Shown here piece by piece: positions 5,231-63,257 of a stretch of 64,000 nt of DNA. A program made the position numbers and the translations under genes. The DNA is from Eledone cirrhosa. Its lineage: Eukaryota. Numbering within the stretch: the stretch's first letter is position 1; every line of letters starts with the position of its first letter. The notes under the pieces are model-generated. The model was not told the origin of the DNA, made no database searches, and was given only the letters and a program-made list of their open reading frames with translations. The stretch covers positions 50,716,001-50,780,000 of the forward strand of contig OZ024745.1 of NCBI GenBank assembly GCA_964016885.1, read 5' to 3'.

Positions 5231-6109
5231 ATGGATTGTATCCGTAATTCAAAGGACAAGGCTTGTCCAACACTGTGGCACACTGAATCTCTCTGAGAAT
5301 TTTAAGGATTTACGTCTCTTGAATACGCAGCCACTTACACGTAAATTTGAAGAGTAAACCATTCCGAAGATCTAACACTCATTGTAAAAACCGACGGAGA
5401 TCCATGTATGTCTTATAGGTGTGTTCTTAAGAACTAAGCATGTCTGTGATTATGTGCACAAGTGTATTCCAGGATATTAAGATGGAGAATCACAGGAATG
5501 ATTTTTACAAAACTTTACTATGTCACTAATAGATTGGGTTTGAAGGTTTTAAGGCTCTTACAGTGATTGTTTTTACATAGCTCAGTATGTAATCTATGGT
5601 ATTTGGTGCGAATAAATGTCTGTAGTCTGTATACAAGAGCTGTAACTTCCGTATTATTTAACCATAGGCGTTATCTTTTTCCTCACACTTTAGACTATAC
5701 ATTCACATCAGCTAGGCAGTTGACCTCTACAGCAGTGCATTACCTTTGTCCAAAAATCAGGTCAGTTGTAATTTCACGGTATTCACTAATATTTCTTATT
5801 TTTAAAGTTTGAATACATTCTTGTTCTAGTTTGTATTTATTTAGAATTACCATCAAGCCTACGCTGCCGTTAGCATTCTAAATAGTTTGGTAACTGTGGA
5901 TAATGTTACCCATATCAGCTGCTGAGGATATGTGAGACATCGTCCATGATCAACACATTTCTACCACAGAATGTATTGATCAGGTATTTAATAACCATTT
6001 TTTGTTATCGAATAAAGAAGAAATATGCCTTAAGCTGAGATATATTAAAGTTTCAATAGAGGTTACCCTTCCTGAAAATGCTGGTACCCACTACTCAGGC
6101 ATAACTAGA

Positions 6110-6960
6110 GCTATCATTTGAAATCGAGTATGACTTTATAGTATTTACTACTCGTGAGCATGCATAGACACCCTCTCCACCTTCTTTTCTTTGATCCAGT
6201 GGGAGATCTAGGATGTGACAGCCACTTATTCCTTTCACTAATACTGACAATACCAGTATTGATATAGGAGTTGCCAGTAGAGGTTAGTATCACCCTAATC
6301 TGGTTAAGTGTGTGGATTACTTCGTGTGTCCCAAATGCTAGTAGTACTGGCATTGCAAAAGCAATATGAGTTTTGGCCTCCTTGAATATGAATGTTTCCA
6401 TATCATTCAAAGTCTGCTGGAGTATTCATTATCACAAGCTTTACTCAGCGAACTAAGAGTCACTTGTAGAATTTGTCATTGAAGATAATGAAGGTTGGCG
6501 TGCCTTTGATACTCACATTCCTTGTTTGGTCGAGATTTGTTTCTCGTTTAAATAGCAAATGTGAACATCCTATCAAACTCCTAGCCAAATCCCGTAGAAG
6601 TGTTGGGATCGGCTCAAACTTTCTTTTGTCATGGATATTACAGTTTAAGGTATTTGACTAAAAAGTTGTGGCTGATATTTGTTCTCTTTTCTGTAGATCC
6701 TAAGATCCTTTGTATTTCTTCACTGGCTGCACGAAAAGCATTATAGGAAAGCTGTATTCTAGACTATTAACATTCATGGTTTTCCGAATTCTGTTTGTGA
6801 TCGTTCAAGTTTCTTGAGCCTTTAATGATATCTGTGTGGAATATGTATAGATATTAAGAGCCATTTTAATCTGGTGAAGTTCGTCCTCTTAGCACCAGTA
6901 TAGTAGTTTGCTTTTAAGATTGATGTTATTATGTTCTTATCTGTCTTTGAGGTGTTTTAA
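6110..6960 (-). mobile_element. Degenerate R4/Dong-like non-LTR retrotransposon, RT/thumb region
   Basis: AFAMPVLLAFG...IRVILTSTGN...KKRRWRG resembles the R4-type NTFAVPVL...RKIL...RKxGGRGL region. Confidence 0.55.
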
Positions 6961-7231: not shown

Positions 7232-7269
<38 letters not shown>

Positions 7270-7658
7270 CACATAAGTATTTATGATATGTATGTGTGTG
7301 AGTGTGTGTCTATAAATGTGATCCGTTCACTTTTGCGTTTATAACGCCAGTCTATGTGATAGCTTTTTTTTTTTATTAATTTATTAACAATGTTTTCGCT
7401 TATATTTTACTTTTTAAAAATACCTTCCATTTAATTTTTATTATATTTAATTATACTATTTTTCTCATCGTGAAATTATGTTATTTTAAGTTTTCATTCG
7501 GGTTTTTAAAACAAATATCTTTAAAATAAAATGTTTTTTTTTGTCAGTTCTAGAAATATTTTGTATTCGTTATGAAGCAAGGAATTTAGTTAAGTTTCAT
7601 ATTTATATATAATGTATGTATGTATGTATGTATGTATGTATGTATGTATGTATGTATG

Positions 7659-8159
7659 TTATCTCTTTCTCTTAATTTGGAGTATATTTTTTTGACCGGC
7701 CACCTTCCTGGTGGCAAGGTTGTAAAAGAAAAGAAATTGTCATCCCTTGAATCGCAAGAATGTTTTGCAAATTTTGAAGGTGCCAGCTATCGCAGCCATT
7801 TGTAGACTATGAATTAGGGAGCTGCGCTTTTTGTGCGCAAATCCAAGTTCAGTCATACTTTGGTCCAAGTGGGTTGGTATATAACCCGTAGCTCCAATAA
7901 TGATGGGTATGAAGCTAAAGGTGTATCTTGGATACTGGATTCTAAACTCCTCATCAATGGTCCGTAGATGTCCTCCTTCTCCTGTATTTTTCTGACAACG
8001 TTTACACCAAGTGGGCAGCTGATCTCCACAACAGAACACGTTTTCAATGTGTGGTCCCAAACAACAATATCAGGCCGGTTGTGCTTTAATTTGGTGGCAG
8101 TTTTTATTTTCAGGTTCCACCAGTATTCCTTAGTGCCATCTGTCTCAATATATTCTTCC
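7659..8159 (-). mobile_element. 5'-truncated R4/Dong-like element: restriction-like endonuclease (RLE) end and 3' UTR
   Basis: EYWWN...KHNRPDIVVWD...VVEISCP...KEDIY, frameshift, then IPIIIGATG...KICKTFL. The 3' UTR has the hairpin GCCACC-AGGAA-GGTGGC. (CATA)n flanks both sides. Confidence 0.85.
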
Positions 8160-21134: not shown

Positions 21135-22269
21135 GTCGGCTAACAAAGATGCTCTCATGGAATGTGACCATATGAGGTTTATTTTTCAACATAGCCCCTT
21201 TTGCGATCCACGCATTTTTTCAAGCGGTGTTGCAATGCATGGATCCCATTGGTGAAGAAGCTTTCATTCTGTAATTTAAAAGTTATCAAAAGCAGATATT
21301 ACGTCAGCATCACTGCGATACTGATTCCCAGCCAAGCGTTGTTTCATGTTGGGGAACAAATGGTAGTCAGATGGGGCCAAATCAGGGGAATAGAGAGGGT
21401 GATCAACCAGTTCAAAGCAGCAACGCAGGACTTGTGTGCAGGAGCATTGTCCTGATGAAACAAGACCCCTTTCATCAGTTTTCCTGGGTATTGGATCTAG
21501 ATAGTTTTTCCTAACTGCCTCAGTACGTTGACATAGTACTTTCCACTGACGGTGTGGCGATGTGGCCCTTTTGCACCCCCCAAAACTGAGGCCATCACCT
21601 TCCCTGTACATGAAACGATCTTTGAAGCAGTTGAGGAAGTGTGTTTCCACTGCATGAACTGTCTCTTTGTCTCAGGCTCAAAGTGATGAATTCAACATTC
21701 ATCCAGCTTGATCTGCCTCTAACAATGTCAGATTTTCCCGTGATGTGATCAGCCTGGTGCACGTTTGACTAGATGTCAGAAGACGTAGCACCCATTTCAA
21801 TTCTTTCACGGGATAAGCTAATAGCATTGGCTATTTGATTTATAGTCAATTGCCTGTAATCCATCATCTTGTGGTGAACACGATCAATGTTTCTCTCGGT
21901 GGTGGCAGTTGCAGGACGTCCAGATCTTCGGTCACCTTCAAGACTCCCCCTTCCCCTCCTAAATTCAGCTTTCCACTGTTGCACTGTTAATAAAGCTGGA
22001 ATGTAATCCCTTAATGTAGCAACAATGTCAGCATGAGTGCTCTTGGAGGATAAACACATTTTCTGCAGGTACTTGATAACAACGACGATGCCAAGAAAAG
22101 TCACTACTAGCTACTTTTGAAATATTTTTTGAACAGTTAGATGTCAGTTTACCTGGAGGAAACAATTCAGTTATTAATAAGAAGAGTTGAAATTAATGCG
22201 CGCAGGATTTCGCAGCTCTAGCGTAATTCCTTCATAGTCAGCCCCTGAACTTCTCAGCCCACTCTAGTA
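21135..22269 (-). mobile_element. Degenerate mariner (Tc1/mariner) transposon with internal deletions
   Basis: HPLYSPDLAPSDYHLFPNMKQRLAG signature; N-terminal WKAEFRRGRGSLEGDRRSGRP. A mariner-type end (TA)CTAGAGTGGGCTGAGAAGTTCAGGGGCTGAC lies at ~22269; the other TIR is eroded. Confidence 0.9.
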
Positions 22270-40691: not shown

Positions 40692-41119
<428 letters not shown>

Positions 41120-44069: not shown

Positions 44070-44915
44070 TTCTTGTGGTTTTATAATTTGACAAATGTTT
44101 ACCAATAGAGAGAGAGAGTCGGTTTCTATCATAGACACAAGACTCTCTCATTGGAATTTACACAACATCAACTAGGTAGATATGTATGCATGCATGCATG
44201 TGTAGATATGGATGTTATTTTATGTGTGGATGTGTATGTTTTGTGTTGTATGTGTGCATGTGTATATGGTTTGTATCTGTACATGTGTATATGCAGTTAT
44301 TAGATGCACAATTTGGGGAATGTTTTACATATTTTTACTGTTCCATTAATGGATTCTATATGTAATTTCCTAACTAGTTGTGTTCTTTCTGTTCCTGTGA
44401 AGCCCAGGTTCTCAAGATTTGTATTGAGGCAGTTACTAACATACCCCAGTGCCCCAATAATCACAGGCATAAATCTGAAGGTGTAATCAGGGTGGAGTAT
44501 CTGAAGATTTCTCATCAGTTCTGCATAAATATTCTCCTTTGCGCTAATCTTTGATATTATATTGGCATCTGCTGGGCAGCTAATTTCCACTACTGTGCAT
44601 GCTTTCTTCTCTGGTCTGTTATGTCTGCATTTTATTGGGTGTTTTACTGGAATATTCCACCAGTACTCTATTATATTATGTACATGGATATCTTCCACAT
44701 TGCTGTAGCTTTTAATGTGTTTATTATCGGGGCTATTTTTTCTACGGATTGCATCGTACAGTGTTTTAGCCACTACATCATGCCTCATAGGTAGATAGTA
44801 CCGCGATGACATCTTTGGACAGCTGCTGATGACATGGGTGACATCTTCGATGTTAATTCTGCGGAGTCTGCACTTGCTATCACATCTAGGTGTTTTGCCT
44901 GCATCCCTATCTCTT
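44070..44915 (-). mobile_element. 5'-truncated R4/Dong-like element: CCHC knuckle, RLE domain and 3' UTR
   Basis: CRLRRINIEDVTHVISSCPKMS (CCHC with one Cys lost), RHDVVAK, EYWWN, HNRP (short deletion), VEISCP, KENIY. The 3' UTR hairpin CCAATGAGAGAGTC...GACTCTCTCTCTATTGG is followed by (ACAT)n. Confidence 0.9.
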
Positions 44916-44925
44916 TGTATGTATG

Positions 44926-45214
44926 TGACATAGAAATAATCGGGCTGGATAGGTTAAACCACTGGGAGTGAAGGCCCCCCCTAACCTTTGTGAGGGCATT
45001 CTTCTAGGAGAAAGCAACTCAGGAAACTGGAATAACTCCGACATAAAACCTGCGGCTCAGTAGTTACCGATGATGTTGATCTTTTCTTCTTTTCAGGTTA
45101 TAGCTAGTGTCGCTCAGAGAGTGGGGTTGGTTTAGTGCACAGCCTTTCCTCACTTAGCTTAATTGATAATTATTAATAATGTTATATCGTGCAATGGCCA
45201 TACTCGATAACGAG
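44926..45214 (+). mobile_element. Family B non-coding retroposon (diverged relative of family A)
   Basis: Shared blocks CTAGGAGAAAGCAACTC, GATGATGTTGATCTTTTCTTCTTTT and GAGAGTGGGGTTGG. The terminal hairpin is cut by a (GA)n array. Confidence 0.75.
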
Positions 45215-45252
45215 AGAGAGAGAGATGGAGAGGGAGAGAGAGAGAGAGATAG

Positions 45253-45374
<122 letters not shown>

Positions 45375-45421
45375 AGAGAGAATAGGAAGTCAGATTTGCA
45401 GTTTTGATATGAAACTGTATT

Positions 45422-45509
45422 GCATATTACAACTGTTTCGATAACGATCAGCTCGGGTTTGATCAGGCGATCGGATACCGACTCTTAATCGACATCTCCT
45501 CAGATATGC
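45422..45509 (-). ncRNA. Type I hammerhead ribozyme motif with extended stem II
   Basis: GCATAT-CTGAGGA-GAT...ATC-GAAA-CAGTTG-TA-ATATGC on the minus strand. Confidence 0.75.
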
Positions 45510-45537
45510 GTGTTTAGATGGGACCACTCATGTAAAC

Positions 45538-45629
45538 TTGCATATCTGAGGAGGTTTCGATTAAGTGTCGGGATCCGTTAGCCTGATCAAACCTGAGCTG
45601 ATCGTTATCGAAACAGTTGTAATATGCAA
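45538..45629 (+). ncRNA. Type I hammerhead ribozyme motif with extended stem II
   Basis: Stem I TTGCATAT/ATATGCAA, core CTGAGGA (45546-52), 57-nt stem II domain, GAAA (45610-13), minimal stem III and GUA cleavage triplet. Confidence 0.78.
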
Positions 45630-46594
45630 TACAGTTTCATATCAAACTGCAAATCTAACTTGCTATTGTCACTCTATATACACACTCTGCAAATTACAGC
45701 CGCCTTATACCTGGAGCATAACCCAACGAGAAGCGGAGCCTGTAACAGCATCAAGTGCTTTGAGCAGCGTCACCGCTAGTAACCACAAGTTACTCACTTA
45801 AATAACGCTCTATTCTCGATGACTGGTCATTGTACGAAGACCTACTGGATTATTTTCATTTATCAGAAGATTTAAATCTCAACTCTCAAGATGATGATCA
45901 GTTGACAGCTCAGAGATTTTTAAATGATCACACACAGCACGATATCGTCCTAGCTTATAAAACGTGAAGTAGACAGTGGCCGTTCACTCATTCAGTCGCG
46001 GATATTGATAGCAATGTTGGTGTGGTTGCAGGTCGGTTGATTGTGATATCCTGTGATGTCTATCTCTGACTCACTCTAAATTAATTCATCTTTACATGTC
46101 TCAACACATGCTATCATTTTATCTGTTCAATCATTCATACAATTTATCTACACACAAACATTCTGTAGTTCACCATTTTGCTTCATTAATTGGTCATGAT
46201 CTTTTTATTGCTAACTTTGTGATTTTCCACCAATTCTCCTAACATTTCAATGTAGTTTCAAATCCAATATTTGACGAAATATATATACCTCTATTTTAGA
46301 CAAATATATGCATTTGTTTTCCCTGTTCACTTTTGTCATACGCCTTTGTGACAAAACATAAATAATGGGTATGGAATGAAATTTTGCTGAGAATTTTTTT
46401 AACGTGCTTACCACGTGTTCTTTGGTATATCTTAGTTTACCCAAACTACAATTCAACAAATCTTCCTCAAACAAACAACAACCAAGGCCTCCTAGCAACA
46501 CACCATCAATCTCACATTGAATTTCTCTTACTAACAATCATACATTCCTAACATACATTTTTACATCGTATCGCTTTCACCATCACATCATACC

Positions 46595-47021: not shown

Positions 47022-47062
<41 letters not shown>

Positions 47063-47151
47063 GGGGTGGAACACTGGAAGGTAATATCCGTAGTGGTAGA
47101 GCACTCAGTCCAAGGGATGAGTTAGGTAGAAGTGTTTACACAACAGTTAGT

Positions 47152-47212
47152 TCACCATACCGAGAACAATTGTTTCACCTTCCCGGATCTTCAGCTCGGG
47201 GTGTGTATGGTT
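47152..47212 (-). ncRNA. PLE-associated minimal hammerhead ribozyme
   Basis: CCGAG-CTGAAGA-TCCGGGAAGGT-GAAA-CAATTG-TT-CTCGG. Confidence 0.8.
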
Positions 47213-47396
47213 ATAGGAACAAGAAGGGCAACCGTACGAACGCGCATGCGCAGAAACTCGGTTACTTCACACAGGCAATACTAGACTGCGTGCGGGCGGG
47301 GGGGGGGGGGGGGGTGTAAGGGAGATAACTGCGAAAGTCCGGAAAATTTTTTGGTTGAAAATAAAATAAAAAAATTAAAAATAAAATTACAAAGAA

Positions 47397-49010
47397 TCAG
47401 TCCGGAGCCTTGTAGTTATGCAATAGATGTTTGGTGACGTGTGGACAACGTGTGAAAAATTCACTCCTCGTGTTTAGGCAATCACTATTGCGTAATCTCT
47501 TTAGGATAGTTATTCGTTCGTCAATACATAAGCCACACGTCGGATTTCCCCTTGCGTATGGCTTGGACTTAGTGATGGCTTTCCATTGAATGGAGTACCC
47601 TAGACTTGAGTCCTTGAGGGACCATACGTGGCTCGCGAGTTTCGTGGATGAACGTCTGTCCGGGTATCTGAAGGTAGACTGGTGGTTCAGGAAACGTTCC
47701 TTGAATCGGCCTTCCGCCATGCCCACATAGGATTTGACCTCCTGTGGTTCGTTTGGTCGGTTGGAAGTGACCACAGCTTCATAGATTACAGCTGGTGTGT
47801 TGCATTGTTGTTGAAGGAGGCAAGCTTCAGTCTTACGGCAAGAGCACCCTGGTGGGGTGTTGCTCCTAGGGCTGCTGGTGATGTGGGCCTTCATGTTCTT
47901 AGCGCAGGAGTATCCTAGTTTAACTTTGTGTCGGTTAAAGATGGAGCGGTATTTATGACCTATGAGGAAGTGTCTATCTAAGAGGGCTAGAAATTTATTT
48001 CCTACATTGGTTTTAACGTTGAGTGAGAAGGGAGGAGAGACCCAGATAGTTTCTCTATTGATGCGCTTACTTTTCTTAATGGTGTTGTTGCTAGTGGGAG
48101 AGTAGGTGATAGGTTGTGAGAAGCCGCTGTTAGCCAACGCCGTGTTATAGTAGGGTGCCGCCCTGTCAAAGATAGCCTTATTAGAGGAGAAGTTTGAGAT
48201 TCTAATACTAATATTCTTAAGTTTCTAAAAACAGTGGGAGGGTGGCATGAGTCCCTGTGAATGTAATTAAGTTTCTCGTTTAGCTTATGGAAGGGTCTGT
48301 TGGTGTGTGTGCGAAGGTCTAAATTAATGTCTAAGAAATCTACGCTAGAGAGGTTGGTGGCTACTGTTATCCTAAGTCCTAACTCATTGAAGGTAAAAGC
48401 TAAGTCTTTTTTAAACCGGTCGAGGTCGTGACCACTTTTATGGCTCGATAAAGTCAGTCCATCGTCACGGTATATTCCCGTGTGGAAGTCCGGGAATCTA
48501 ACACGTAATATGTCTAATATAAAAAGGCCAACCAAGTCACATACGTCAGCACTGTCAGACGATCCCATGGAGACGTCGAACAGGTCTGAAGATGTAGACT
48601 TCTTTGCCCAGGCTACTCCGTTGTTGAAGGGGAGAGTTTTCGGCGGTTAGCGATGATTTCCCTTTCTAAACCATGGACGGTGGTATAAGTGGTAGCGAAG
48701 TCCAACGCTTTGTTTAACAGGGTCTCTGAGATCGACGGGTAAAAATCGACAATGTCAAACTGTGTGAACTTCGCTTTTTTGGATTTTAAGGAGTTAAACT
48801 ACTTAATTACGGAGTCGCTGTTCTCCCACTGGGGCAGGTTGGACTTGGTACTAATGGTCTTAACTATGTTTCTAAGTATGGCCTTACTGACTAGTCCCAT
48901 ATCTTTGCGTGCCGGGTTTATTAGTCTACATGTGGGGTTAGAAGTAAAGTCTACCTTGTGATCTTTCAGGGTGAGGAACGCCTCCCGCTTAGCTAGAGAT
49001 TGTAGCTTTT
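47397..49010 (-). pseudogene. Frameshifted PLE reverse transcriptase / GIY-YIG endonuclease ORF (Naiad-like Cys pattern)
   Basis: RT motifs PTCRLINP, FDIVDFYPSI, FDVSMGS and YRDDGL; linker IWVSPPFS and CSC-x5-C-x5-C; endonuclease motifs VIY...YVG, FKERF, CGLC and LNTRSE...CPH. Frameshifts near 48640 and 48210. Confidence 0.92.
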
Positions 49011-49147
49011 TATTTTCAACCAAAAAACTTTCCGGACTTTCGCAGTTATCTCCCTTACACGCCCCGCACGCAGTCTAGTATTGCCTGCGTGAAGTGACCG
49101 AGTTTCTGCGCATGCGCGTTCGTACGGTTGTCTTTCCTGTTCCTATA

Positions 49148-49205
49148 ACCATACACATCCCGAGCTGAAGATCCGCGAAGGTGAAACAATTGTTCTCGGT
49201 ATGGT
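49148..49205 (+). ncRNA. PLE-associated minimal hammerhead ribozyme (inverted copy)
   Basis: CCGAG-CTGAAGA-TCCGCGAAGGT-GAAA-CAATTG-TT-CTCGG, with stem I extension ACCATA/TATGGT and palindromic stem III. Confidence 0.82.
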
Positions 49206-49244
49206 GAACTAACTGTTGTGTAACCACTTCTATATATATATATG

Positions 49245-49950
49245 TATGTATAGAAATTTCGTATTTCCAAAGAAATACGGTCTTAGGAAGCCGTAGCTAT
49301 GCAAACACGAGAGGGGGGGGGGGGCTAATGCCCTCTGGTGATGTGTCCAGCAGAAGCAAGGGGGACAACCGTCTATGCATTTCAGGCTTGACTGGCCATC
49401 GTCGGGACGATCCCACCCACTGCTTGCGACTGCAGGACTAGAAGACGGCCGAGAATATATAGTTTTCTCGTCTGTGTAAATGATGTGATTAATCTCATTT
49501 GCATATGAAGCTGCATAAGTTGGCTCAACTTATAATAGAAAAGAAATAAGATTTCGCTTCAAGCATAGCTTTATACAATATGTATAGAAATTTCGTATTT
49601 CTAAAGAAATACGGCCTTAGGAAACCGTAGCTATAGCCACATTATGCAGCTTCATATGCAAATGAGATTAATCACCTCATTTACACAGACGAGAAAACTA
49701 TATATTCTCGGCTGTTTTCAAGTCCAGTAGTTGCAAGCGGTGGGAGGGATCGTTCTGGCAATGGCGAGTTAAGCCTGAAATCCATAGACGGTTGACCCCT
49801 TGCTTCTGCTGGACACCACCAGAGGGCGTTATACCCCCCCCCCCCCCGGTGTTTGCATAGCTACGGCTTCCTAAGACCATATTTCTTTAGAAATACGAAA
49901 TTTCTATACATATTGTATAAAGCTATGCTTGAAGCGAAATCTTATTTCTT
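49245..49950. repeat. ~335-bp unit: one copy, a partial tandem copy, then an inverted copy
   Basis: ATGTATAGAAATTTCGTATTTC at ~49246 and ~49580; 49635-49950 is the reverse complement of the unit. Confidence 0.85.
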
Positions 49951-51863
49951 ATATATATATATATTTATATATATATATACATATGTGTGTGTGTGTGTGT
50001 ATGTGTAAACATGCACAAACGAAAAATTGTATTAGTACTATTTTTAGTAGCTAGTTTGACATGAAAGAAATAGCAGCAAAATCTTCCACCATCCATTGGA
50101 TAATGTCATCCTGCTCCTCCAAAAGACATATGACGGTCATCGTTGGATTATCTTTGATTATACATTTTCTCGATCAGAAATGATGTGCGACTGAACAGCA
50201 ACAACGACTTTATCCATAAAATATTTTCAAAATAGTTCTTTAGTACATGATAACTAGCATATTTAAATTGCATTTTGTGTTGAAATACCACAGAGGTTAG
50301 CATAGCCTTTCATTGTTCCGGGATCGGAAAATAAACTTTCAGTCTGAGACGGTGGAGTGACGAAATCCTCAGACCGTTGTGAATTAAAATTATTTGCCCA
50401 GTTTAACATCACCACTTTGCCCTTGGTTGTCTTTAGCGGAGTCCACTCTATTGTAAGCATTCGAGAATGTTCTCCACACTCTCTCCCTCTTATTAGTTTC
50501 TGAGGCCCCTTAATCAAATATATTTGCATAAATGAATCAAGATAAATATATTTGCATAAATAAATCAAGATAAATATATTTGCATAAATGAAACAGGATA
50601 ATAAAAACTGTTACTTTGATTAAAGTAGGCTGATATGCTGGTATATTTCGTTACCATCCAAGTTACGAATAAATAAGTAGTCGTCTGTTGGTTCAAATAT
50701 TAATCACTCCTGCTTGAAACACGAATCCTTACAAATGTGCACTTATAAGCCTTGACAAACATATATCAACACTAACAATACACATACATCTTATGATGCA
50801 AGCGTAAACACATCCATGCTGAAACACTCTTGCATATACTTGTAACCATAGATTTCATGAATATATTTTCACAAAATGATAAATATTATGTGGCATATAA
50901 TGAGCGATCTCTCTCTTTCTCCCTCGCCCCCTCTTTCTCTCACCCCCTCTCTTTTTCTCCCCCTCCCTCTTCTGTTACAAACACAGACGTAGAAAAACAT
51001 GTTATGTTACATTTTGTTAGAGTTATTAGTGCAAATATCATTGAATAACCTCCAAAATACATTTCAACTTCCTGTGGTATCTCTTTTCTTGCCTAAATCT
51101 GTCACGTTCCCTTTCGTTAAGATATTTGAGTAATGTTTATCAGACATCAGGTTCTTGAAAAATCATAACAGGACTGGTTGAAAAATCTAACGCTTCTCAC
51201 TTTAATTGCATTCTTCGAACAATTGCATTATGGAAAACAACAACGAAAGGAACTACTGACGTTTCCCTAATAACAGTTGTAGAATCTAGATTCACAAATG
51301 AATCTAATGATCCGGTTTTCAGCCGAGATATCATTACTGTTGATTTTTCTCATTGACATAACTTTTTACATTTTGTAATAGAGCTACATTCGATTATCTC
51401 GAGCCTATTATATCAAGAGTACATTATTTCATTGATTCGTTGAGAATGAAGAGCAAAGTTGGTCTCGGTCATTCATACAAGTTGCATCTCCGAGAGTAAA
51501 TGAATCCGTCCTACACTCTCTCCCAAAAGAGAACGCTATTCCTCTCTGCAACTCTGCCCCATTTTTCGTGATGAACATGTGATGATAGAAAAGCAAGAAA
51601 GGCAAAGTACCGGAGAAACTAGTAAAGGAAGAAAAACCAAAATAATCTGGCAATCCCTACATGATAAAAATAAAACACAGGTCACTCGCCAGAATTTCTG
51701 GTAGCTTGAGCCTAGTACGATGTGTTATATAGTTAGGTCGTCTGCTTGGTAAAAAAAAGGGGGATTTTAGGACACTCAGCGGAAGGAAAAAATAAAATTT
51801 ATCAAAGCGCGCGATGAACTCACGAAAGGCAATGATCATCCAATTGTGTGTGTGTGTGTGTGT

Positions 51864-54134: not shown

Positions 54135-57100
54135 CAGGGGTCGGCAACCTTTTGGAGAGAGAGGGCCAAACAGCTATGCAGTGTCATGGAGGAGGGCCAT
54201 GTTATTAAATATGTAAATACATTTTCTGGAGGTTTAAAGCAAAACAAGGAATTTAATATAATTTTACTTTAACAAGGCCCCTTATTTTACTGCAGGAATA
54301 ACAAAAAAAAAAAAGAAGAAAATTAACTACAAACACATTCAACAAAAAAAAGCAAATTCCTTATTTTACTGCAGGAAAAACAGAAAAACAACTACTATCA
54401 TAATCAACAAAAAAAAAAAGCAAATTCCTTGCTACAAACGAAATACAGTTAGAAATGGTAAATGATTTAATGAGACACTTGTTTCTGCTTATTGTGCGAT
54501 AACTTCTCCACACCAGGTGAAATATTTGTCGATGACAGGAGCAAAACATCATCCAGGTGGTCGTCACGCAACCTTGTTCTTAAATGACTTTTAGTATATT
54601 TCATTTTGGAAAAAAGTTGTTCACAAGCATATGTACTTCCAAATAATGATATCATCAGTTTCGCATTAGTCAAGATGTTTTTATATTTTCCGCTTGGCAA
54701 TATATATTTATTGTAGAAGTCAGCAGTGGATTCGAACTGAAATTTCGATTTCAAAGATTCGTCGCACTGTAGGTCAATTAACTCCAACTGATATTCTTCT
54801 GCCACATCTGTTTCGTAAGGAGTACCAAATAACTTAAATAGAGTTCCATATTGCCGGAAGTCAGCAAAACGAGAGGAAAACTCGTTTCTCAAATCCTTAA
54901 TAGAGCTCACAAAGATGTCTGGTATTATATCTCTCTTGTGATTTTGGAGACTTGGGAAATGAGAGTAGTTTCCGTTTTGAAGTTGTGATTCCCACATTCG
55001 AAGTTTTCTCTCAAAAGCAGTAATTTGACCAAACATCTCAAATACAACCTTGTTCTTTCCTTGAAGCTCAAGATTCAAAGTGTTCATGTTGGTCGTGATG
55101 TCCACTAAAAAAGCTAACTTGACAACCCACTGTGGATCCTGAAAGTAAGAATTATCTTGGTATTTGCTCTCTAAAAACATAGAAATCTCTTCTCTCAATG
55201 CATATACTCGTTCTATCATTTTCCCGCGGCTAAGCCATCGAACATTTAAAAAATATGTAAGGTCGCCATACTCTGCTTCAATTTGTTTTAGAAATTCTTG
55301 AAACTGGCGGTGATTTAGTCCTCTTGACAGTATAAAATTCACTGTTTTCACGACCACTGCCATGATGTCCTTAAAATTCAGTGACTTTGCACATAATGCT
55401 TCTTGATGAATATTGCAATGAAGTTTGATTAGTTTTTTATCAATACCGATGTGGTTTTGGAGCAATGCAACAAACCCCTTTTTCTCTCCAACCATTGCTG
55501 GTGCTCCATCTGTGATTACTCCAGAAAGCTTTGATAAATCCAGATTCATTTCGGTAATCCATTTCATGCTTCCCAAAATATCTGCTCCAGTGCTAGTGTC
55601 CTTCATAGGAATCAATTGTACAAATTCTTCCACAATATTGGTGTTACACCCCTCACAAACACTGCAAGTTAACAAGTATCCTTCATATCTGTGGTTTCAT
55701 CGATAGCAATGGAATAATACTCCAGATTATTTAAAATGCCCTCCAAGCCACTTCTGACATTTGCTGCCAGCTCTTCAATTCGCCTTGTTACTGTTCTTGC
55801 TGATAAGCTGATCGCAGAAAATAATTCCCTTTTTTCTGGACAAACAACATCTGCTACCTTCAACAATAATTCTTTGAAGAAATCTCCACCAGTAAAAGGT
55901 TTCATCCTTTCTGCAATTAGTTTTGACACCTCGTAGCTAGCACGAGTGTTTCGGTCACTTTCTTCAACTTTTCTAGTGAAAAAGGATGATTGCTTTGTTA
56001 CATTATTTCTCAGCCGTGCAACTTCGTTTACTCCTGTTTTTCCAGTAAAACTGTTGTAATGATTATGACGAGTTTCATAGTGCCGTTTAATATTTGAAAC
56101 TTTCTTCACGGAAATGGTTTCTTGACAAATTAAGCAAACACATTTTCCGAAGTGTTCAATGAAAAAATAGCTAAGTGTCCAGCCATCGTTAAAAGTTCGG
56201 CACTCCAAGTCCACTTTTCTTTTCTTAGCTTCCATGGGCTTGTTTTTGTTCAAACAAAAAAGATTTATGGAAAGGGAAAAGAACAAAAAGTGTAATAATT
56301 AGAATGAAGAAATAAGAAACAATGAAAACAAATGTAAATGCGAATACAGTAATGCGATAAAATATGATAATTGTGAATAAATTATATAAAACCAGGTTTC
56401 TAACCATGTTGTTAGATCAGGGTTGCCATTTGTTTTTTTAAACCACTTTTGGCCAAATTCTAATAATAATAATTCACACAATTTATCATAAATAATTAAA
56501 TAAACGTTATTATCGAATAAAGATACCTACTGTATAGTTGTTATACCACAAGACAAAAAACTCAAATGAAAATACTCTGGGGAGGAGGGAACGGAGTAAT
56601 TTTTCAAAGGACATCTTTACATTGTGCCGGGGGGCACAGGTAAGGTCAGGCAAACAAAGACGACAATAATTCACGTGTGATTTTATTGAATGACAATATG
56701 GGTATAAAAGCGAGTCATGCGAACCGTAAGGTAGTATACTTTCCATTCGCTGACGAAAATGCATACTTCCAGCCAACATGTGTGTTTGTGAAATGCAACA
56801 AAAACACATACATGAAATCACAGGAAATAATAATACAGGTGATATAATGCTTGGCGGAAAGCCAAGAAAAAGATGGATAATAATAAATGGAAAATATAAT
56901 AAGGTTACAAAGGTATCTGTAAATATATACCGTATGAGCAGCGATTTGTGATGGGCATCAGGTCGACACAACTTTGAGTGAACTACTGTATCTGTATTCG
57001 ATACTAATTACATAATTAGTGTCCAGTGTAAGATGGCGGGCCGGACAAGAATCACTCGAGGGCCGGATGTGGCCCGCGGGCCGGGGGTTGCCGACCCCTG
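54135..57100 (-). mobile_element. Full-length hAT DNA transposon (SPIN/Charlie/Buster group)
   Basis: Perfect 15-bp TIRs CAGGGGTCGGCAACC / GGTTGCCGACCCCTG; 8-bp TSD CCTTAAAG / CCCTAAAG (7/8, NNNTANNN type); internal transposase. Confidence 0.96.
54467..56235 (-). pseudogene. hAT transposase (GTF2IRD2/SPIN-like) with a nonsense codon and a frameshift
   Basis: MEAKKRKVD; BED finger CVCLIC...IKRHYETRH; AIDETTD; ITDGAPAM; HCNIHQEALC; VRWLSRG; STYACEQLFS. TAA at 55669-71 lies in DTC*LAVFVRGV, and the frameshift is near 55640. Confidence 0.93.
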
Positions 57101-61296: not shown

Positions 61297-62194
61297 GCGT
61301 GTGTGTGTGCGCGCGCACGCGTTTGTGAGTGTAGACAGTCAGATGATAAATGTAACAGCTCTGGACAATACCATTTTCATGAATCTTCTCTCTCTGTTTG
61401 GATTCTGCCGAGATCTACACCACCTTTTACTCATTCGAATCGTTAAAATTAGCAGCTGTATTTTTCCGCGTTATATTAAATTATTAATTCACCTTAGGAA
61501 AAAATTAAGCTTGCGCCTGCACAATCAAAAATAATTACGATCAATTAATTTGAAAAGGAAAAAAACATTCGTTGAAATACAAATAAAACACAAATAACGA
61601 TTGTAAAAATATGTTATCTCACATTTCTATGCTTAAAACCGGATTTGTTTTGTTTATACGGTCAAGAAACCTAAGTAGTCATCACGGGAAAATAGCGGCA
61701 ACATTCTGAGATTGTGGCCGAGTGAATTGTTTAGAAGTAGAGTTGAAAGTTTTGTTTGCCAATTCTTTCGAATGCAACACTAACCAGTTACATACAATAG
61801 GTATTTAGTAAGAAAACAAAATCATCTTTATTGTAAATGAGAAACTAGCCATACTGATTACAAATATTATATTATCGTTTTAAGTTGAAACCGTTTCATT
61901 AGCCGGCTTCTTAACCTCTGCGTCATCTCAACTCCGAACAACAACGTAATTGAGATATATATATATATTGAAAGAGGGAAGAATAACATGGTCAACATTA
62001 CAAAAAAGGTTTTTATTTACAGTATTAACAATTGTTTCACTGATTAAGTTGTTTAAAAATTGCTGAACACTTGAAGCTGTGCCACTCAATTTTAAATACG
62101 ATGTTAGCTTAACCAGATCACCAGAAAGGACTGTTAAAAACATACTCAGCGTTTACGAATTAAAATTACAACATCATTAATAAAGAAAGAGAGA

Positions 62195-62890: not shown

Positions 62891-62998
62891 TATTTCTGAT
62901 GATCTGGTTAAGCTAACATCGTATTTAAAATTGAGTGGCACAGCTTCAAGTGTTCAGCAATTTTTAGACAACTTAATCAGTGAAACAATTGTTAATAC
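62891..62998 (+). ncRNA. Type I hammerhead-like motif with 79-nt stem II domain
   Basis: TATTT-CTGATGA-T-CTGGTTAAG...CTTAATCAG-T-GAAA-CAATTG-TT-AATA; stem I is weak. The minus-strand twin has a mutated core (CTGGTGA). Confidence 0.62.
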
Positions 62999-63257
62999 TG
63001 TAAATAAAAACCTTTTTTGTAATGTTGACCATGTTATTCTTCACTCTTTCAATATTATTACTCCAAGATAAACTTACATAGACATTCCCGAGAACTCACA
63101 AACTCGCCACCTACTGAAACCTCTTGTTGAGTCAAACAACGCCGTACGCTAAAACTATCCACAATACGGAGTATTCACAACCTCTAACTGGATTACCTAT
63201 AACGATATTTTGTTATCCCTTATATCTATATAAGGGATAACAAAATATCGTTATAGG

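Follow-up and report, generated by a model that had tools for sequence, protein, structure and literature searches.

A fold-back with two long-stem-II hammerhead cores in the Eledone cirrhosa genome, probably a decayed insertion of a Hydra-clade Penelope-like element

Penelope-like retrotransposons of the Hydra clade encode a reverse transcriptase (RT) followed by a GIY-YIG endonuclease at the C terminus, and their marks include a CxCX5C linker, the CxxC, CxH and DKT motifs, and (TA)n target sites (PMC8557442). They carry a type I hammerhead ribozyme near the 3' end, with a palindromic loop III, and an inverted, 5'-truncated copy has already been described for such elements in the same work, whose File S2 also lists Penelope-13_HM with an antisense hammerhead. 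By our own count from that file, stem II of the published Hydra hammerheads is about 12-26 nt long. The minimal metazoan Penelope hammerheads (Cervera and De la Pena 2014, PMC4209133) are likewise of type I, with a minimal palindromic helix III and a dimer model, and dual hammerheads located 100-700 bp apart on opposite strands have been reported there; the largest helix II in the portion of that paper considered here is 6-8 bp, with no multi-segment arm. A longer domain is found in PLE-X1_sMoe of Selaginella, marked as non-canonical in PMC8557442 File S2, which has about 54 nt between the core halves. In PAc, a Poseidon element of Anolis, a tail that extends past the pseudo-LTR arises when initiation occurs internally on RNA that has not been cut, extension takes place on both target strands, and the ribozyme cleaves only with the element protein (PMC11167929). 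Non-LTR retrozymes (PMC7229834; bioRxiv 10.64898/2026.07.22.740005) are short, ORF-less repeats with type I hammerheads, related to pseudo-LTRs and defined by tandem units.

The locus described here lies in a 64,000-nt stretch of the E. cirrhosa genome (contig OZ024745.1, positions 50,716,001 to 50,780,000, forward strand), referred to below as the window. It is a fold-back that very probably consists of a decayed, 5'-truncated Hydra-clade insertion together with an inverted copy of itself, in which a stem II of 57 nt was inherited from parent elements where it was likely under structural selection, as it is not here. Its family shares with the Hydra clade the order of the coding domains, the linker, the DKT motif, the (TA)n targets, the 3'-proximal type I hammerhead, the palindromic loop III and the inverted truncated copy. 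Unlike the published Hydra hammerheads, the families studied here have a stem II domain of 57-63 nt with a conserved internal loop, which also sets them apart from the minimal metazoan hammerheads; with respect to the latter, the window's family needs no extra nucleotide ahead of stem II. Since PLE-X1_sMoe reaches about 54 nt, stem II length alone has precedent, but that element belongs to a plant and to an endonuclease-less clade, its sequence is unrelated, it lacks the GAGUC/GAGC motif described below, and it is a single listed family. The tail past the pseudo-LTR recalls PAc, which differs in its clade, in a hammerhead that overlaps the ORF start, and in that its description, in the part considered, includes no long arm. 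The short, ORF-less copies resemble retrozymes, although they are dispersed, truncated and inverted rather than tandem. None of seven strings specific to the families turned up in the supplement text of PMC8557442, where line breaks could mask a match, and no long-armed family with GAGUC/GAGC was found in the portions considered of PMC13725137, PMC7229834, PMC6765202, PMC3088659 and the 2026 retrozyme preprint, the comparison being confined to these texts. What appears to be new lies at the family level, namely a long arm with an internal loop at a fixed distance; the locus itself is ordinary. At least seven families keep the arm and the loop spacing while their helices change, which makes them ready-made mutants for learning which peripheral domain a ribozyme of this kind requires, and thousands of this genome's copies go uncounted when genomic hammerheads are tallied with models built for short stems; the single locus, being a decayed copy, has no such value.

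The fold-back is formed by inverted-repeat arms of 118 nt (45403-45520 and 45529-45646) that are 92% complementary and separated by an 8-nt spacer; complementarity reaches about 45380 and 45670 once one indel is allowed. Stem I together with the 3' portion of the core (its second half) is found exactly twice in the window, one time on each strand, against a shuffle expectation of 0.09. A type I hammerhead descriptor gave five matches in the window and none in any of 30 Markov-shuffled windows; two of the five are the fold-back arms, in which the stem II domain measures 57 nt. Both arms have the type I core CUGANGA...GAAA...UH and stems I, II and III, stem I being of 6 bp and stem III of 2 bp closed by a self-complementary loop. 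Two complete back-to-back cores, one on each strand, each with a stem II of 57 nt, had been proposed in the initial annotation and are borne out by these matches, and the cleavage site that it had placed after GUA at 45621 coincides with our predicted cut after A45621. An inner, short-stem core was also considered for the window's arms and rejected, as none fits CUGANGA.

The right unit (45512-45806, plus strand) corresponds to the 3' end, or pseudo-LTR, of a Hydra-clade Penelope-like element with a long tail: BLAST to the natural copy L066 covers 45512-45801, and other copies match to 45806. Its hammerhead (45540-45627) comprises stem I at 45540-45545 and 45622-45627, the core CUGAGGA at 45546-45552, GAAA at 45610-45613 and a self-complementary loop III. 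The 57-nt stem II domain (45553-45609) carries the conserved motif at 45565-45569, damaged at 45566, and at 45595-45598, 11 nt ahead of GAAA; it is predicted to misfold (z -0.81). The tail 3' of the ribozyme (45628-45806) is homologous to the segment between the upstream hammerhead and the RT in the related copy L258. The left arm (45380-45522, minus strand) is an inverted, 5'-truncated copy of the same 3' end, the BLAST match to L066 covering 45392-45522 and the arm-to-arm alignment extending to about 45380. It ends with the family's common short tail, about 50-60 nt beyond the predicted cut, and next to it lies a (GA)n-rich microsatellite (45212-45371) that is likely the target site or an expansion of it. 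The left-arm hammerhead (45422-45509, minus strand) has its core at 45503-45497, its stem II domain of 57 nt at 45496-45440 and its predicted cut at 45428/45427; the GAGUC/GAGC motif is intact and the predicted fold is that of the family model, with a weak z-score (-1.08). The inversion junction (45509-45541) coincides with a hairpin native to the family, immediately 5' of stem I, that is also present in the natural copy L012 with a DNA fold of -10.4 kcal/mol. The right flank past 45810 was considered as a possible ORF of the element and rejected, as it matches another repeat. This dispersed repeat, at 45922-46550, is 70-81% identical to other copies and has no ORF similarity to the element.

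The 3.0-Gb host genome is rich in microsatellites, and the arm is a dispersed repeat in it, with 797 candidates, 40 of which were scored and gave 42 matches. Most of the 28 other loci examined are single copies of about 190 bp flanked by microsatellites, and (TA)n or (CT)n stands at the end of most copies of the family, the (TA)n flanks being a mark of the Hydra clade. Copies of the family are also present in four sets of contigs from two organisms. Longer copies show a staggered 5' extension through a pyrimidine-rich UTR of about 0.9 kb into a GIY-YIG endonuclease, which is found upstream of the repeat in L125 (endonuclease 5774-6358 and arm 7248-7392, on one strand) and in L080. In L124 an RT lies upstream of an endonuclease whose DNA is 82% identical to that of L080. 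The related, X-like copy L258 has on one strand a hammerhead with a 59-nt stem, then a homologue of 45681-45806, then the RT, an order that identifies the right unit as a pseudo-LTR plus tail; a pseudo-LTR upstream of the ORF is present in L258 and also in L260, from another family. The translation of L125 includes, by eye, the CxCX5C linker, CxxC and CxH, with no CCHH and with one Cys within the GIY-YIG core, and the DKT motif is found in L124 and L258. The RWK motif is present in L129/L260, another long-stem family; L124, L257 and L262, whose 5' parts are decayed, did not show it there. A Pfam search of four broken ORF fragments gave no significant match; the Penelope-like assignment rests on these motifs and on BLAST to a neighbouring element in the window. 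ORF-linked copies belong to sister subfamilies of the window's exact subfamily (L125 is 76% identical to the arm), and no intact full-length copy was found among those examined. The neighbouring element (47060-49232, minus strand) is of Hydra type and of a different family; it is 5'-truncated, with a broken RT and GIY-YIG, and has inverted pseudo-LTRs at 47127-47366 and 49008-49232 that are 90% identical, with back-to-back hammerheads of 11-nt stem II at 47194 (minus) and 49165 (plus).

The 57-63-nt stem II domain is shared by at least seven element families in the genome, four of seven having been chosen via a search in which the motif was obligatory. When the gap was set to 35-65 nt, the pattern matched 1,679 times against 6 for its reversed control, a number that includes non-long-stem matches since one family in it (L136, L144, L161 and others) has an inner short-stem core. 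The core plus AGUC and GAGC gave 10,104 matches against 1,398 in the control, and a strict four-part pattern gave 4,665 against 0. GAGC lies 11 nt from GAAA in all but two of 63 copies (61). Outside this genome the strict pattern hit 77 metagenome loci and one viral locus, which we attribute to chance: none of 71 distinct matches passed the pairing checks that were passed by 28 of 52 own-genome copies.

To these counts can be added a sequence-only, cross-family alignment of 51 hand-picked copies of the W, X and Y groups, for whose retrieval the motif was not a condition. Both-side changes occur at seven of the eight pairs of the lower stem II and at five of the six of stem I, and when the structure is slid along the alignment its score drops strongly. 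Cells with both-side changes number 122 against 59.5 after shuffling, and with one entry per family 80 of 91 cells are paired against 65.6 and there are 11 extra Watson-Crick types against 5.2, tests that overstate the number of independent events because the families are related. Loop III varies in sequence and keeps its self-complementarity in six of seven families, and for copies of three other families the predicted fold agrees with the model, at z from -2.3 to -3.7, a fold of L201 with misplaced coordinates being left out of account. The first stem II pair is often mismatched (unpaired in 28 of 51 rows), as also shown for other Hydra elements in PMC8557442 File S2. Within the window's own family, where 55 of 66 full copies were aligned, only 4 pairs had changes on both sides against 6.1 after shuffling. 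Covariation of stems I and II among genomic copies, for which the initial annotation had called, is thus seen across families and not within that of the window.

Rfam hammerhead models gave no match at E<=10 on 45380-45820, nor at E<=5 on six family loci, the scans returning just sub-threshold scores for microRNA-like hairpins; the models miss these predicted ribozymes because of the long arm. Judged from these comparisons, the 57-nt stem II is a real, conserved family trait that Rfam models do not detect, and earlier suggestions of a Penelope-like hammerhead, of a non-canonical long-stem-II class, and of its being overlooked by standard descriptors are all supported.

Alternatively, the long stem II may be a tolerated insertion in which selection kept the lower helix alone, the distal motif having been retained by recent descent and without function, a reading to which we give a minority but appreciable weight. 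Unconstrained RNAalifold on the cross-family alignment gives a structure of -0.38 kcal/mol in which stem I is absent and just six pairs, all of the lower stem, are present; the neighbouring Hydra family works with a stem II of 11 nt, and the unrelated long domains of L160, L192 and L260 indicate that length alone seems to be tolerated. On the other hand, the motif and its 11-nt distance from GAAA are kept (61/63) across families that are about 40-70% alike in their stem II seeds, as a rough ratio, and the pairs flanking the motif co-vary (A-U to G-C, C-G to U-A).

Conservation of the motif at a fixed distance suggests a docking role for the internal loop. The GAGUC/GAGC loop in the long arm would then offer a place for docking, and the protein encoded by the element is our preferred guess as the most likely partner. 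A more elaborate proposal, which we put forward tentatively and consider rather improbable as a whole, is that the arm is a bolt-on domain evolved in a large radiation of Hydra-clade elements in this genome: its loop would bind the element's own RT-endonuclease, or dock on stem I, and so gate cleavage, while the palindromic loop III would pair two RNAs so that priming occurs on both target strands, a process that would account for the inverted copies. If it were true, the genome would contain thousands of natural ribozymes gated by a protein, none of them visible to current models. The internal loop may resemble bulged-G (loop E) motifs; a kink-turn reading was dropped by eye, as it calls for a G-A that the Y families have not retained.

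Two further families (L160, L171, L192 and L260, the last at 1504 on the minus and 1835 on the plus strand) have a stem II of 59-65 nt without the GAGUC/GAGC motif, and long arms may therefore have arisen more than once. L260 includes an inverted copy, a pseudo-LTR and an ORF start with RWK. The lower stem II of family X (L151, L199) resembles, by eye, the published short-stem hammerhead of Hydra-1_oBim (PMC8557442 File S2), and sequence likeness suggests that the long arm could have grown from a short-stem ancestor of that kind.

Inverted copies were surveyed at 57 loci from core patterns (60 taken, 3 duplicates dropped). An inverted copy of the element's own 3' part lies just upstream at 14 of them, two being doubtful (L141 and L148), and two full cores are present at 3; in addition, five back-to-back pairs occur among the first 100 listed matches of the 35-65-nt-gap pattern. 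The back-to-back layout is a routine insertion geometry of Penelope-like elements. With one core per strand, the usual dimer cannot form within one transcript here.

The ends of 114 copies, taken as BLAST ends with related families included, bear on the way in which such insertions are made. Only 2 of the 3' ends fall within 5 nt of the cut, while 73 lie 30-59 nt and 15 lie 170-199 nt beyond it; 51 of the 5' ends are 91-120 nt before the cut, near the native hairpin just before stem I. As ends are rarely at the cut, the template RNA would have been uncut, in line with PMC11167929, where reverse transcription of another element proceeds from uncut RNA and the protein extends both target strands in vitro. 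By our proposed mechanism, cDNA synthesis was primed by the element's protein on each strand of the microsatellite target, using as template RNA not cut at this ribozyme, and reverse transcription started in the tail. The right unit would have been primed from the long-tail site and the left arm from the short-tail site, and the two cDNAs would have met at the hairpin that the family has 5' of stem I, which fits microhomology joining. In parent elements the ribozyme would cleave as a dimer through the palindromic loop III.

The inversion could also have been generated by snap-back, a single cDNA having folded at the native hairpin and copied itself. We regard this as the less likely course, though far from negligible: the junction is exactly the family hairpin and three rare variants are common to both arms, whereas the left arm stops beside the microsatellite at the usual short-tail end, like a separately primed cDNA, and extension of both target strands by a Penelope-like protein has been seen in vitro (PMC11167929).

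Both arms are decaying. With the most frequent letter of each column in 29 other copies as the reference, the right arm has changes at paired positions that break four pairs, keep one and compensate none, and those in the left arm break three, keep one and compensate none; one broken pair is common to both arms. The differences between the arms had been proposed to preserve pairing in part, with selection or co-variation of both arms at the locus implied. The private changes instead break seven pairs, keep two and compensate none, and the absence of any compensatory change between the arms leaves that selection unsupported. Non-CpG substitutions in 53 copies, with 8 subfamily-diagnostic columns left out, amount to 5.2% in the columns of the core, to 4.6% in those that pair and to 3.8% in those that do not, and these even rates argue that no selection acted after insertion.

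An alternative we hold to be very improbable is that the locus is a host-adopted regulatory hairpin, in which the read-through duplex would hide an active ribozyme and supply ADAR or Dicer with substrate. The whole fold-back is predicted to form one long hairpin of about -206 kcal/mol, both cores are intact, and the arms are identical over about 49 nt (45598-45646 and 45403-45451), a tract that takes in GAAA, the whole of loop III and stem I's 3' strand, with 10 arm differences located nearer the fold-back centre. This identical tract, however, contains three variants that are rare among other copies and present in both arms, one of which breaks a stem II pair; a shared template or later gene conversion suffices to explain it, and selection is not needed. 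Gene conversion inside the palindrome is possible given the identity over about 49 nt and the three shared rare variants; no clear tract of this kind was found in four other arm pairs. The balance of broken and compensated pairs given above also speaks against a host function, as does the equal geometry at 3 of 57 other loci. Formation of a dsRNA that would be a substrate for ADAR or Dicer, as the initial annotation had suggested, is physically plausible, and it would hold equally for many other such insertions. Finally, most copies, being short (about 190-300 bp) and without ORF, invite the idea of a non-autonomous retrozyme that multiplies by way of circular RNA, one that we discount almost entirely, as the loci viewed include no head-to-tail arrays, only single or inverted copies, 5' ends are staggered into the UTR and ORF, copy ends avoid the cut site, and the ORF-linked copies largely refute it.

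Other features were noted in the window and in the copies compared. A hammerhead with an 18-nt stem II, from yet another repeat family, is located at 40991 (minus strand) and also in L146, L260 and L261. The region 49300-49961 consists of nested inverted repeats (49531-49634 and 49857-49961, 94%) and includes at 49405 (minus strand) a hammerhead-like motif with the core CCGACGA. The copies L136, L144, L161, L163, L172 and L188-L190 have in most cases a likely core CCGAUGA (U4C), a 7-bp stem II and a matching stem I, and could represent a natural core variant. Two long frames at 54467-56298 (minus strand) resemble what we take to be a hAT-type transposase, and fragments at 7740-8158, 44300-44953 and 21276-22110 are presumably related to non-LTR restriction-like endonuclease domains and mariner-type transposase. 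An inverted repeat of 163 nt, 98% identical, is found at 61965-62127 and 62893-63055, its two copies lying about 770 nt apart.
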